A stretch of 64,000 nucleotides of DNA from Candidatus Tayloriibacteriota bacterium (GTDB lineage: Bacteria; Patescibacteriota; Minisyncoccia; Phycocordibacterales; UBA6065). Both the position numbers and the translations under genes were made by a program. This document shows positions 30,834 to 45,590 of this stretch, one piece after another. The notes under the pieces were generated by a model. The model was not told the origin of the DNA and ran no database searches. It worked only from the letters and a program-made list of their open reading frames with translations. The stretch is taken from the NCBI GenBank assembly GCA_016215405.1, contig JACRJQ010000007.1, positions 71,297-135,296 on the forward strand, written 5' to 3'. Within the stretch, counting starts at the first letter, position 1. Each line of letters starts with the position of its first letter.

Positions 30834-30919
30834 ATATTAAGCGCGCTTCTATGTCGCTAATAGTAGCAGGTATAAGGAGAGGTATCGAGGGCGGGGTTCG
30901 AACGCGAGCCTTCATTTGG

Positions 30920-31005
30920 CGGAGACGGAGAGAATTTCGGTCCTTACAGGACCAGTACCCCGATTGGCGCGAGTACGCGGCTCAATCGGGCTTCGAATCT
31001 CTCAC
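30920..31005. repeat. 86-bp direct repeat, copy 1 (duplicated tRNA-Ser mirror element)
   Basis: Identical to 31076-31161 by eye. Begins with ggagacggagaga, antisense of the tRNA-Ser 3' end; ends with ttcgaatctctcac, antisense of the T-loop/stem; two internal hairpins. Confidence 0.8.
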
Positions 31006-31075
31006 ACCCCTATCGATGATTCGGTCACAGGTTTTCGCTTGCTAGCGAAACCCGCGACCCCGCCTCGCGCCGTCG

Positions 31076-31161
31076 CGGAGACGGAGAGAATTTCGGTCCT
31101 TACAGGACCAGTACCCCGATTGGCGCGAGTACGCGGCTCAATCGGGCTTCGAATCTCTCAC
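31076..31161. repeat. 86-bp direct repeat, copy 2 (tRNA-Ser mirror element)
   Basis: Same 86 bp as copy 1, period 156. Followed by a gcaggcgtaccacgcctgc hairpin and a sense-strand ctcgtctccgcca. Confidence 0.8.
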
Positions 31162-31227
31162 GCAGGCGTACCACGCCTGCTCGTCTCCGCCAAACAAAAA
31201 ACGGCACTTTCGTGCTCGTTTTTGTAT

Positions 31228-31319
31228 TGGCGGAGACGGAGAGATTCGAACTCTCGAACCAGTTTTACCCGGTTAACACCTTAGCAAGGTGCCGCTTTCG
31301 ACCACTCAGCCACGTCTCC
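31228..31319 (-). tRNA. tRNA-Ser (anticodon GCT), CCA encoded
   Basis: Type II tRNA. Acceptor GGAGACG/CGTCTCC, anticodon loop TTGCTAA, long variable arm, T-arm CGAGAGTTCGAATCTCTC, G73 plus CCA. Confidence 0.85.
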
Positions 31320-31461
31320 CTCGTACTAGCTTTGGAGCAGAGAGACAATACCATATCGACGCTCGATTTTCTACGTTTTTCAGCGAAGATTGATAAAACA
31401 GAGAGCGAGTGATAGGGTTTGCGAGAATTCAGTCACAGCAACATCGAAACAGGAGGCTACC

Positions 31462-31947
31462 ATGGCTCAAGAGACCTATCAGACGGTCGAGTCGCTTTGG
31501 AACGAGGAGGGTCGCGGCATGAGAGCGGTGTGGAGCGCAGACCCAATGCATTTCCGGACGCTCACGAATCAGACAGCTACCGCGCACCTCCTCCTCTCTT
31601 CCACCAGGCAAAAGACTCGCGGGGTCCGCGCGATCATCTTCGACGAGAGCGAGGGCAAGAAGGTCGATTACAGGTTCGACGAGGATTCTCCTCTGGCCTG
31701 GACCGACAGGGAGCTCGCGACGGCGTTCGACCGGGTCCGAAACTCGAAGAACCTCGCCACTGACCCTGACTTCGCTCGCGAATGCGGCGCAGACGTCGCT
31801 ATCCGCGGCAAGTTCGCCCGCAAAGGCAGAGAGCTCGTCATCTTCTGCGAGGAAATGGAGGGAGACCCTCCCAAAAAGAGAGCGTTCTCGATCCTCGTCA
31901 CGGACGAAATCGCAGGGGCCGTGGGAATGCTCCTGCCGAAGCTCTAA
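31462..31947 (+). CDS. hypothetical protein, paralog A of a tandem pair
   Basis: Start reassigned to MAQETYQ with an AGGAGG SD; shares the GKFARKG...V.FC...G...V.DEI C-terminal block with the next gene. Confidence 0.55.
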   Translation: MAQETYQTVESLWNEEGRGMRAVWSADPMHFRTLTNQTATAHLLLSSTRQKTRGVRAIIFDESEGKKVDYRFDEDSPLAWTDRELATAFDRVRNSKNLATDPDFARECGADVAIRGKFARKGRELVIFCEEMEGDPPKKRAFSILVTDEIAGAVGMLLPKL

Positions 31948-32056
31948 GCCCTTCATGCACTTTCCGCCCCGCGTCCGCGCGGGGCTTTGATTTGAAAAAG
32001 GGCCATCCCTCTGATAAGGTCACCCAGAAACTCAAACCAACGGGAGGATACAGACC

Positions 32057-32497
32057 ATGAACGAACAGACCGAAACGACGCCCATCGACTGGAAAGAAGG
32101 AGCGAGATACAAAGCGACCCTCGCAGAGGACGTGAACCACAAAGGGCTCACCGTCACGACCTTCGCGGCGCATCTTATGATCGAGCGCGCGGAGGACGGG
32201 TTTTCGACCCGCCTCGTCGCGTTCGGCGAGAAGAGCAAGAGGTCCGCGGACGGCCTACTCAACTTCTCGCGAGACGAGCTCCTCACGGCGCTCGGCCTGC
32301 CGCGCGAGGCAGATTCGACCGACCGGCGATTCGCCGAATCAGTCGAAGCGGAATTCGCCTTGCCCGGGAAATTCGCCCGCAAGGGAGGCGTCCTCGCCGT
32401 CTTCTGCAAAGCGGAAGACGGCACCGAGCGGCGCTACTACTTCGTCATCCCTGACGAGATTAAGCCCGCCCTTTCCCTCTATCTCAACCATCGCTGA
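32057..32497 (+). CDS. hypothetical protein, paralog B of a tandem pair
   Basis: 146 aa; GGAGGA SD; C-terminal LPGKFARKGGVLAVFCKAEDG...VIPDEI is homologous to paralog A. Confidence 0.55.
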   Translation: MNEQTETTPIDWKEGARYKATLAEDVNHKGLTVTTFAAHLMIERAEDGFSTRLVAFGEKSKRSADGLLNFSRDELLTALGLPREADSTDRRFAESVEAEFALPGKFARKGGVLAVFCKAEDGTERRYYFVIPDEIKPALSLYLNHR

Positions 32498-32559
32498 TCC
32501 CCAAAGGATCGATATCCGACCGCGAGCGCCAAGCTCGCGGTTTTTGCTATCATACCCCC

Positions 32560-33366
32560 ATGACAGAATCTCGGTTCAAGGCCCTCATATGGGACTATTA
32601 CAAAAATGCCGGCCGGCACGGATTACCGTGGAGAAAGACCAAAGATCCTTACCGTATCCTCGTCTCCGAAGTGATGCTCCAGCAGACCCAGGTGCCGCGA
32701 GTCCTCGCGAAGTACCCCGAATTCCTCTCCCGCTTCCCCACCACGAGATCGCTCGCCCGAGCGAAGGTCTCAGAGATCCTTAAGGTGTGGAAAGGGCTCG
32801 GATACAACCGTCGGGCGCTCGCCCTCAAGCGCGTATCGGAGATCGTCTCGATCGAGTTCAAAGGAAGATTTCCGAAAGAGGCCCACGAGCTGGAATCTCT
32901 GCCCGGCATCGGCCCGTCTACCCGCGGCGCCATCATGGCCTTCTCGTTCGGGCTCCCCACCACATATATAGAGACGAACATCCGCGCGGTCTTCCTCCAT
33001 TTTTTCTTCAAGGGCAAGAAAGGCGTCGACGACAAAGAGATACTACCTCTCGTCGAGAGGACTCTCGACCGCGAGAGGCCGCGCGACTGGTACTACGCCT
33101 TGATGGACTACGGCGTCTATCTCAAGCGGACGCTCCCTAACCCCTCGCGCGCTTCGAAGCATCACGCGAGGCAAGCCTCCTTCAAAGGATCTAACCGCGA
33201 GGTGCGCTCGAAGATACTCTCGTACGTCCTTGAAAAGCCTCGTACGCAAAAAGAGATCGAGAGGTACATAGGAAAGACGCCGCACGACATAGACAAGAAC
33301 ATACGAGATCTCGTAAAAGAGGGATTCCTCGCGAAGGCGGGAAAGACGCTCTCGGCGCGCTCCTGA
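32560..33366 (+). CDS. MutY-like HhH-GPD DNA glycosylase lacking the Fe-S cluster, with a C-terminal winged-helix-like extension
   Basis: N-terminus LPWRKTKDPYRILVSEVMLQQTQV...LGYNRRA matches the MutY/EndoIII family; HhH-GPD motif LPGIGPSTRGAIMAFSF; zero cysteines in 268 aa. Confidence 0.65.
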   Translation: MTESRFKALIWDYYKNAGRHGLPWRKTKDPYRILVSEVMLQQTQVPRVLAKYPEFLSRFPTTRSLARAKVSEILKVWKGLGYNRRALALKRVSEIVSIEFKGRFPKEAHELESLPGIGPSTRGAIMAFSFGLPTTYIETNIRAVFLHFFFKGKKGVDDKEILPLVERTLDRERPRDWYYALMDYGVYLKRTLPNPSRASKHHARQASFKGSNREVRSKILSYVLEKPRTQKEIERYIGKTPHDIDKNIRDLVKEGFLAKAGKTLSARS

Positions 33367-41898: not shown

Positions 41899-41972
41899 GC
41901 GCCTATAGCTCAGTTGGTTAGAGCATCGAGCTTATACCTCGAGGGTCCTTGGTTCGAGTCCAAGTAGGCGCA
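41899..41972 (+). tRNA. tRNA-Ile (anticodon TAT)
   Basis: Acceptor GCGCCTA/TAGGCGC, anticodon stem TCGAG/CTCGA with loop CTTATAC, T-arm CTTGGTTCGAGTCCAAG. Confidence 0.8.
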
Positions 41973-41980
41973 CCGACATA

Positions 41981-45105: not shown

Positions 45106-45495
45106 GGGGATGATCGGCCTAGACATGCGATTCCCTTCCCTTTGCGCGCGATAGAGCTCCGACAACTCTTTAAACTGCCGGAAACCACAAATGCTAAATC
45201 CGTTAAATCGCCGTTTACGGCTAACGATTTTTCATTCGCTTACGCAATAGCCTAAGCGACATCGCACTCCTCGCATTCCTGGCGCGGGAGAGAGCGGTGT
45301 TATAGATCCAGGATAGAGCCCGACCCGCTTCGGTCCCGCTCGAAAGGCTTCGGCCTCATGAAGCTCGGCGCCCGCGCGTTCTGGAACTCTTAGAGCGCGT
45401 CCGCTTAAATCCGCCTTCGGCGGAAAGACTTCCTACATCGCGTAGACACAATCGGAAATTTCGCTTGCACCCGAGTTCGATTCTCGGCATCTCCA
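45106..45495 (+). ncRNA. ssrA: tmRNA (ssrA), one-piece; encoded tag ANDFSFAYAIA
   Basis: Begins GGGGAUGAU 15 nt after smpB. The 5' GGGGAUG pairs with the 3' CAUCUCC including a G3-U70 wobble and A73 discriminator (alanine identity). T-arm CCGAGUUCGAUUCUCGG precedes it. An in-frame GCU AAC GAU UUU UCA UUC GCU UAC GCA AUA GCC UAA (45220-45255) resembles the E. coli ANDENYALAA tag. Confidence 0.75.
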
Positions 45496-45590
45496 CAAAG
45501 CAAGTCGCCCGCAAGGGCGGCTTTTGCTTTGTGGAGATGAGTCGTGCCGGGGGGGGCACGACGTCCGAGAATCGAAGCCCGGTTGAGCAT
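45488..45590. repeat. tRNA-like 3'-flank mirror element downstream of tmRNA
   Basis: catctccacaaagcaag-[tcgcccgcaagggcgg]-cttttgctttgtggagatg long hairpin including the acceptor 3' strand; then gtcgtgcc-gggggg-ggcacgac hairpin; then ccgagaatcgaa, antisense of the tmRNA T-arm. Confidence 0.5.

Follow-up and report, generated by a model that had tools for sequence, protein, structure and literature searches.

A tandem gene pair beside tRNA-Ser(GCU) belongs to a Patescibacteria-wide protein family with a predicted PC4-like fold

Two small genes follow each other on the forward strand of a 64,000-nucleotide (nt) stretch of a Candidatus Tayloriibacteriota genome (contig JACRJQ010000007.1 of assembly GCA_016215405.1, positions 71,297–135,296), called the window here. 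The first open reading frame, ORF-A (31462–31947, 161 amino acids (aa)), encodes the 'A-type' paralog and the second, ORF-B (32057–32497, 146 aa), the 'B-type' paralog; the locus tags of the pair are HZA81_02825 and HZA81_02830. An earlier note on this DNA had placed two tandem paralogous genes at exactly this interval, and BLASTP bears the paralogy out, with 30% identity and 46% positives (E = 4e-14). Because the alignment runs from residue 3 to 158 of ORF-A and from 2 to 143 of ORF-B, the two are, by sequence, tandem paralogs over their whole length, and the similarity does not end at a short shared motif. The best-conserved stretch is the block GKFARKG..L..FC...G....DEI near the C terminus, which the note had already picked out in both proteins. 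It was also right that the N-terminal halves have diverged, although they are not unrelated and still align at W13, T..AHL and R..F.E. Its description of the proteins as acidic needs tempering: isoelectric points are 5.8 for ORF-A and 5.7 for ORF-B (net charges −2 and −3), only mildly acidic, whereas most relatives described below are basic, with isoelectric points of 9–10. No hydrophobic segment was found in the A/B-type protein, which we read as small and cytoplasmic, and the G+C content of the pair (0.58–0.62) is the same as that of its flanks.

Each gene has its own set of putative expression signals, all on the forward strand. The strong Shine-Dalgarno sites reported previously can be read directly from the sequence, as AGGAGG (31451–31456) 5 nt before the ATG of ORF-A and GGGAGG (32042–32047) 9 nt before that of ORF-B. 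Upstream of these lie promoter-like elements of a type found across the family, TTGATA-N14-TGA-TAGGGT for ORF-A (31390–31418; a −35 element, a 17-nt spacer and an extended −10) and TTGAAA-N14-TGA-TAAGGT for ORF-B (31992–32020). The pattern TTG-N17-TGNTARGGT matches exactly twice in the window, at these two places, with zero matches expected by chance, and TTGAAA-N14-TGN-TA(G/A)GGT occurs 16–49 nt before the start codon in 10 of 11 genes of the subfamily to which ORF-A and ORF-B belong, both of them included. From this consensus we infer that the elements are promoters; a looser form of the pattern matches 34 of 434 control ORFs, and a promoter scan with a stricter −10 rule did not call the elements of either gene. 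Directly 3′ of each ORF is a G+C-rich terminator-like hairpin followed by a T run: GCCCCGCG-TCCG-CGCGGGGC and then TTTGATTTGA for ORF-A (31966–31995, hairpin 31966–31985, resembling an intrinsic terminator), and a 10-bp hairpin and then TTTTGCTATCA for ORF-B (32518–32553, hairpin 32518–32542). Both copies have a promoter-like element, a Shine-Dalgarno site and a terminator of their own; the duplication therefore copied the whole unit of promoter, leader, coding sequence and terminator, and both units are still intact. The predicted 5′ leaders of the pair (31419–31461 and 32021–32056) are A/C-rich, as are those at four other loci of relatives (L008, L010, L012 and L016), and leaders of family genes have the short motifs CACAGAAAC, CAGAAAC and GGAAAC in common. 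Judging from these features, the leaders may act as unstructured translation enhancers or as autoregulatory binding sites.

Upstream of ORF-A and divergent to it is a tRNA-Ser(GCU) gene on the reverse strand (31228–31319; called by ARAGORN and matching the Rfam tRNA model at 60 bits), whose 5′ end faces ORF-A and whose 3′ end points left, towards two perfect 87-nt direct repeats (30919–31005 and 31075–31161). Between the tRNA and ORF-A, conserved motifs AGAGACAATACCATATC ... TTTTCTAC (31341–31374) read TAGAAA-N17-(TG)TATTGT on the reverse strand. When nine such intergenic regions between the tRNA and a family gene were set side by side, AGACAATATCAYAT and TTTTCTAT recurred at the same positions, giving the tRNA-strand consensus TAGAAA-N17-TGnTATTGT, a candidate promoter for tRNA-Ser. 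Together with the gene-side elements, this points to a conserved, compact, back-to-back promoter region shared by tRNA-Ser(GCU) and the family gene. Of 12 distinct subfamily loci, 10 have a divergent tRNA-Ser(GCT), in DNA letters, 60–310 nt upstream of their first family gene (the window, L002, L008, L009, L011, L012, L016, L068, L069 and L071, with L003 and L010 lacking it). The same arrangement occurs at two loci of the main family branch (L018 and L062); others have tRNA-Ser(GCT) within 0.5–2 kb or another tRNA directly upstream. Counting tRNAs of any kind, 16 of the 60 family loci have one no more than 250 nt upstream of the family gene, against 21 of 352 other ORFs of the same loci.

The pair belongs to no family in the curated libraries. 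Searches of Pfam, NCBIfam, PHROGs and PADLOC returned nothing significant for either protein, as the note had anticipated in calling no family recognisable, and the best matches were noise (DUF7661, E = 0.02; SepH, 0.054; TagF, 0.18; phrog_33951, 0.13). A word-indexed protein search with A or B found only the queries themselves, and the same search with a family profile found 8 proteins. An exhaustive hmmsearch of an A+B profile against 1.84 billion representative sequences (E ≤ 1e-3) returned 27 proteins, all of 142–169 aa except P0023 (111 aa) and P0009; the latter, with 3688 aa and 9 matched stretches, was rejected as a low-complexity false positive from a eukaryote-like Ig-repeat protein. 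We then scanned one genome per Genome Taxonomy Database (GTDB) species with the sub-alignment of the commonest family branch, which found 51 loci, one in each of 51 species genomes, all confirmed by the family hidden Markov model (HMM) at E values of 1e-15 to 1e-36. Nearly all are titled as Patescibacteria lineages (Paceibacterota, Parcubacteria, and Woyke-, Davies-, Falkow-, Staskawicz-, Nealson-, Adler-, Colwell- and Taylorbacteria), with a few improbable bin labels. Locus scans of genome contigs with the A-type alignment and two scans of metagenome contigs found no relatives, nor did Foldseek against BFVD find viral ones. These proteins are thus an unannotated single-domain family of about 150 aa that spans the Patescibacteria, or candidate phyla radiation (CPR), and is usually single-copy: among 60 distinct loci, a second copy lies within the flanks only in the window and in L009, and L068, fetched after that scan, is a third tandem pair. 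One Paceibacterota metagenome-assembled genome holds two unlinked copies, in L018 (JBAZUA010000004) and L051 (JBAZUA010000003), of which only the former adjoins tRNA-Ser(GCT).

Over 79 family sequences, six columns are nearly invariant (A78, F79, F/Y106, R108, L113 and S128 in ORF-B numbering), with Phe or Tyr at position 106 in 100% and R108 in 97%. Most members also conserve two motifs, PxWWHxHG near the N terminus and LNIPCPGTGxDGDPNxSI between the last two strands. Both occur in the main branch (family alignment A10; for example P0017, P0024 and L018–L067), and both are lost in the branch that contains A and B.

The duplication is old by the evidence of these sequences and predates the divergence of the organisms concerned, because A and B each have orthologs of their own in other metagenomes, to which they are closer than to each other. 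Neighbour joining places A with P0003 and P0004 and B with P0005, P0007, P0006 and P0012; P0018, the first gene of the L009 pair, falls with P0010. Identities agree: ORF-A is 47% identical to P0003 and 45% to P0004, and ORF-B is 41% identical to P0005, 37% to P0007 and 32–33% to P0006, where A–P0003 at 47% and B–P0005 at 41% compare with about 30% between A and B. A-type proteins form a derived branch with an extra DYRFDEDSP insert and always stand beside an 'orthodox' copy, whereas B-type proteins are closer to the family consensus. Both copies have been retained, a pattern unlike that of a rapidly diversifying cassette; the note had raised a diversifying pair as a possibility.

The arrangement around the tRNA recurs in relatives. 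L068 has tRNA-Ser(GCT) on the reverse strand, the A-type gene P0004, a terminator, a promoter and the start of a B-like gene (MNETKHFEWNGASYRARLAKDVKHRGYT; HMM E = 1.9e-4), the same order of tRNA-Ser, A-type and B-type as in the window; the orthologous locus was where the note had proposed to look. In L009, the order is tRNA-Ser on the reverse strand, P0018, the A-type P0003 and the contig end. L069 has tRNA-Ser on the reverse strand, P0021, a 162-aa ORF, an HhH-GPD gene, an ORF of 193 aa and a reverse-strand Band_7 gene, mirroring the right flank of the window. The 162-aa ORF occupies the position of ORF-B and is possibly a degenerate paralog; tried as a family member, it was not recognisable as one, as BLASTP gave no significant match and hhalign gave E = 0.0099 at a probability of 4%. 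L069 (412–721) also has an extra insert of about 200 nt that separates its tRNA-Ser from its family gene and ends with a second copy of the 5′ portion of the tRNA, reading on the forward strand (CCACTCAGCCACGTCTCC); duplications of tRNA fragments therefore occur on the 5′ side too.

Eight ORFs flanking the pair (28.4–36.4 kb) were scanned against Pfam. Those with Pfam hits are a ComF-like phosphoribosyltransferase to the left and an HhH-GPD glycosylase and a Band_7/SPFH protein to the right, and no integrase is among the eight. The 'MutY-like' neighbour of the earlier note is this 268-aa HhH-GPD glycosylase (32560–33366), whose C terminus weakly resembles an ArsR-type winged helix (HTH_5, E = 6.6e-4, short of the Pfam cut-off). 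L069 has this gene too, 3′ of its family genes, and in L008 it lies at a distance of 3.6 kb. Other flanks vary from locus to locus (sigma-70, ABC transporters, RecG, DUF6650, and HisRS-like/S21/YbeY/FtsA/FtsZ). In a Pfam census of neighbours, 53 on the downstream and 53 on the upstream side, no protein partner recurred, nor did any toxin, integrase or defence gene. The commonest downstream neighbours are RecG (3 of 53), RuvB (2) and HhH-GPD (2), a faint DNA-repair flavour that may be only shared synteny. The pair is thus a core-genome locus among housekeeping genes, and not mobile, immunity or defence cargo. The note had named clear hits to a housekeeping family as grounds against its own reading; no named family turned up, but the CPR-wide, mostly single-copy family in core-genome contexts that did amounts to this in spirit.

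The fold of the family was predicted with AlphaFold2. With only A and B aligned, the model was unusable (mean predicted local distance difference test (pLDDT) score of 52); with 31 family sequences, ORF-B was modelled at a pLDDT of 92 and a predicted template modelling score of 0.86. The model has a first repeat of four strands and a helix (β30–34, β38–45, β48–56, β62–68 and α72–78), a linker helix (90–95) and a second such repeat (β100–102, β106–109, β112–118, β124–130 and α133–144). Type I PC4-like domains are defined by this topology, β-β-β-β-α-linker-β-β-β-β-α within one chain about 150 aa long, do not resemble each other in sequence from family to family (PMC7549692; Janowski & Niessing 2020), and share a nucleic-acid-binding β-sheet surface with the other PC4-like families (PMC7549692). 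The predicted topology of ORF-B agrees with that definition in its single chain and its two β4-α repeats joined by a linker, and the model resembles solved type I members in three dimensions. In structural comparisons, it scored 6.8 against PBF-2/Why1 (1l3a; 100 residues, 3.2 Å), 6.3 against MRP2 (2gia_A), 6.3 against StWhy2 (3n1h), 5.4 against MRP1 (2gia_B), 5.0 against an SsgA-like protein (3cm1) and 4.3 against Pur-alpha (3k44). Foldseek of the model against the Protein Data Bank (PDB) gave no significant match, though MRP, PURA, Why1 and SsgB were listed, and profiles of the N- and C-terminal halves show no sequence repeat (hhalign probability 0.4%, E = 0.16). The TK0353 abasic-site (AP) lyase from the Foldseek list, considered in connection with the adjacent glycosylase, was rejected (E = 0.2, template modelling score 0.24, a new fold of its own). 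Taken together, the protein is predicted to be a single type I PC4-like domain (Whirly/PUR/MRP-like) made of two β4-α repeats. F106 and R108 are two residues apart on one strand of repeat II and would thus face the same side.

We hold with good confidence that these are core proteins of CPR-wide distribution with a PC4-like fold, and not cargo. What such a protein does is harder to say, and nucleic-acid binding is a tentative assignment by analogy. The protein would bind single-stranded RNA or DNA through the surface of its sheet, as Whirly, MRP, PUR and PC4 proteins do; this follows from the analogy of fold and from the exposed, nearly invariant Phe-x-Arg on the repeat II strand, and the basic character of most relatives is in keeping with it. 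The ancestral gene would have stood back-to-back with tRNA-Ser(GCU), sharing a compact divergent promoter region, a position that this lineage retains, and after duplication A and B would be transcribed independently from their own promoters; as side-by-side paralogs, they may co-assemble as a hetero-oligomer. On balance, we lean towards this combined picture of anciently duplicated, independently transcribed CPR core-gene copies of PC4-like fold, ancestrally beside tRNA-Ser(GCU), whose most likely activity would be to bind single-stranded RNA or DNA.

Several points weigh against this interpretation. First, no Pfam match to Whirly, PurA, SsgA or MRP was found, at E ≤ 10 for A and B and at E ≤ 0.1 for 31 members, and profile searches of the PDB returned no Whirly, PUR or MRP chain and nothing significant (HipB, GAF, SAMD9 and N37, all E > 0.3). 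Second, the window pair is mildly acidic (isoelectric points 5.7–5.8), which fits a general nucleic-acid binder less well. Third, the fold does not always bind nucleic acid, as some CdiI-type immunity proteins use it (PMC9424270) and the PC4-like SsgB binds FtsZ instead. Fourth, adjacency to the tRNA could be inherited synteny without functional meaning. Fifth, the two main-branch motifs resemble a metal or ligand site, so that plain nucleic-acid binding may not be the core activity of the family, and the pair may have diverged from that activity.

This last point is the basis of the strongest alternative, that the family consists of small metal- or ligand-binding proteins or enzymes built around the His cluster of PxWWHxHG and the Cys- and Asp-rich loop NIPCPGTGxDGDPN, with the pair degenerate and possibly regulatory. 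In the main branch, these residues could, from the sequence pattern, make up a ligand loop or a metal site of the His3-Cys type, and their columns are well conserved over the 79 sequences (P9 91%, W11 79%, H13 64%, G17 83%, N114 77%, P116 78%, C117 62%, G121 86%, D124 82%, P125 79% and N126 77%); of them, ORF-A and ORF-B keep only the Cys. Yet no enzyme family was matched by sequence or by fold, the motifs may merely stabilise a loop or a structural zinc site within a binding domain, and the motif-free subfamily is itself conserved and keeps F106 and R108. We consider this alternative unlikely.

Less probable again is an adaptor role like that of SsgB, in which a Whirly-fold protein no longer binds nucleic acid and acts instead by recruiting a protein of the cytoskeleton or of cell division. 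SsgA-like proteins are an actinomycete family that acts in FtsZ recruitment. One family member stands two genes upstream of ftsA-ftsZ (L003–L006), and MreB is an occasional neighbour. However, the ftsAZ neighbourhood belongs to one protein only (P0030), the neighbour census shows no recurrent division gene, no match to the Pfam SsgA family was obtained, and the strongly basic character of most family members also speaks against such an adaptor.

The immunity-like or phage-defence role raised by the earlier note would make A and B PC4-like-fold proteins that neutralise a toxin, in the manner of an antitoxin, and that were duplicated and diversify under conflict. Some immunity proteins do use a PC4-like scaffold (PMC9424270), and the pair is tandem, small and mildly acidic. 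Against this, no toxin, secretion or defence gene adjoins the pair or recurs among the 53 + 53 neighbours, PADLOC assigned 0 families to A, B and three relatives, and the family, single-copy in 56 of the 60 loci scanned, sits among housekeeping genes. Each copy also has conserved orthologs, unlike diversifying cassettes, and Whirly-type structures score higher against the model than Rv3902c, aligning over about 100 residues against about 66. An immunity or antitoxin-like pair is accordingly very improbable.

That a small element brought the genes in when it inserted at tRNA-Ser, leaving the tRNA-3′-end repeats as attachment-site scars, is scarcely credible: direct repeats of the tRNA-Ser 3′ end do lie nearby, and similar partial tRNA copies sit beside tRNAs at other CPR loci, but the repeats (within 30916–31161) are 3′ of the tRNA and the genes 5′ of it (31462 onward) and so are not bracketed, none of the eight flanking ORFs is an integrase, the G+C content is unremarkable, the adjacency of gene and tRNA also occurs at the repeat-free loci L011, L012, L018 and L062, the locus is kept in L068, L069 and L009, and the right flank (HhH-GPD, an ORF of 19x aa and Band_7) is syntenic in L069.

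The repeats themselves fit their earlier description as tRNA-Ser-derived in part. Both exist and match the 3′ end of the tRNA, but they share only about 18 nt with it, neither ARAGORN nor Rfam calls them as tRNAs, and there is no Rfam match to them in the window. As units they extend over 30916–31071 and 31072–31226, and they belong to a phenomenon seen at several CPR loci (the window, L002, L009, L030, L041, L069, L025, L053 and L035): partial copies of a tRNA 3′ end, usually 14–19 nt from the T-loop, about 140–160 nt downstream of the parent tRNA and in the same orientation, sometimes present twice. Of 11 loci whose flank is long enough, 5 have copies of the tRNA-Ser(GCT) 3′ end; tRNA-Leu(CAG) is copied in L025, tRNA-Ile(UAU) in L053 and tRNA-Arg(GCG) in L035 and L041, the last of these tRNAs at a distance of 56–92 nt, and the copy in L035 is 57 nt long. 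Each copy unit tracks the acceptor and T-stem sequence of the tRNA in its own genome and folds with G+C-rich hairpins inside a long terminal helix, and several share the motif GGGGTCGCG...YGTGACMGAAT. These copies could be scars of integrative elements that target the T-loop, or an undescribed structured RNA. In the window (31182–31238), a 22-nt inverted repeat (CGTCTCCGCCAAACAAAAAACG / CGTTTTTGTATTGGCGGAGACG) joins the 3′ end of tRNA-Ser to the start of the first downstream unit, and between its arms, on the reverse strand, a hairpin GCAC-GAAA-GTGC followed by a T run is probably, from its sequence, the terminator of tRNA-Ser. Elsewhere in the window, ARAGORN identified a tRNA-Ile(UAU) gene with anticodon tat (41899–41974), a tRNA also present in L011 and L053, and a transfer-messenger RNA (45106–45496) with the tag peptide AKSVKSPFTANDFSFAYAIA.

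A large share of the conserved genes in the small genomes of CPR/Patescibacteria is without annotation. The nucleic-acid-binder interpretation favoured above would give one such family a likely biochemical class, that of the PC4/Whirly/PUR single-stranded binders, to go with a confident predicted fold and a clear genomic signature, the place beside tRNA-Ser(GCU) with its conserved promoter. The analysis also disposes of a false lead, that of mobile, immunity or defence cargo. What is new is a sequence family, covered by no curated one, of a known fold class; no new mechanism is demonstrated, and the linkage to tRNA-Ser is mildly surprising. If that linkage is real in function, a functional tie would explain why the gene stays back-to-back with tRNA-Ser(GCU) although its surroundings are rearranged. 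Such a factor could be a chaperone, a processing factor or a quality-control factor for a class II tRNA, or a regulator of the shared promoter. We regard as speculative and improbable the specific idea of a CPR-specific RNA-binding factor tied to tRNA-Ser(GCU), in which A and B, where paired, form an MRP1/MRP2-like heteromeric RNA 'matchmaker'.

Among known systems, the plant Whirly proteins (PBF-2 p24/Why1 and StWhy2; 1l3a and 3n1h) share the β-β-β-β-α-linker-β-β-β-β-α arrangement of type I in a single chain of about 150 aa. They differ in being organellar, where this family is bacterial, and sequence identity in the structural alignment is only 9–11%, with no Pfam Whirly match for the family. 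Plant Whirly proteins carry a KGKAAL motif, which an informal look did not find in the family consensus. PUR proteins (Pur-alpha and Borrelia BpuR), PC4-like YdbC/DUF2128 and SP_0782 belong to the same superfamily and bind single-stranded DNA or RNA on the β-sheet face; no Pfam match to PurA or DUF2128 was found for the family. The bacterial PUR and YdbC proteins are of type II, with one β4-α repeat per chain and a homodimer, whereas this family is predicted to be of type I, with two repeats per chain. The bacterial ones are small regulators, and BpuR binds its own mRNA (PMC6736767). The type I members covered by the review of the fold are all eukaryotic or organellar (PMC7549692), and our full-text literature searches returned nothing linking Whirly/PC4-like folds to CPR, Patescibacteria or Parcubacteria; with the present family, the PC4-like superfamily would gain a bacterial branch of single-chain (type I) proteins.

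For the pair as a pair, trypanosome MRP1/MRP2 (2gia) is the most instructive comparison. They have an RNA-binding type I fold without sequence similarity to A or B, and are themselves diverged paralogs (18% identity) that form a guide-RNA-binding heterotetramer and bind RNA backbones (PMC7549692). A heteromer cannot be the general mode of the family, because most genomes carry a single copy. Where two copies stand side by side at 30% identity, as A and B do, MRP1/MRP2 offers the closest analogy, and by that analogy the two proteins may assemble with each other.

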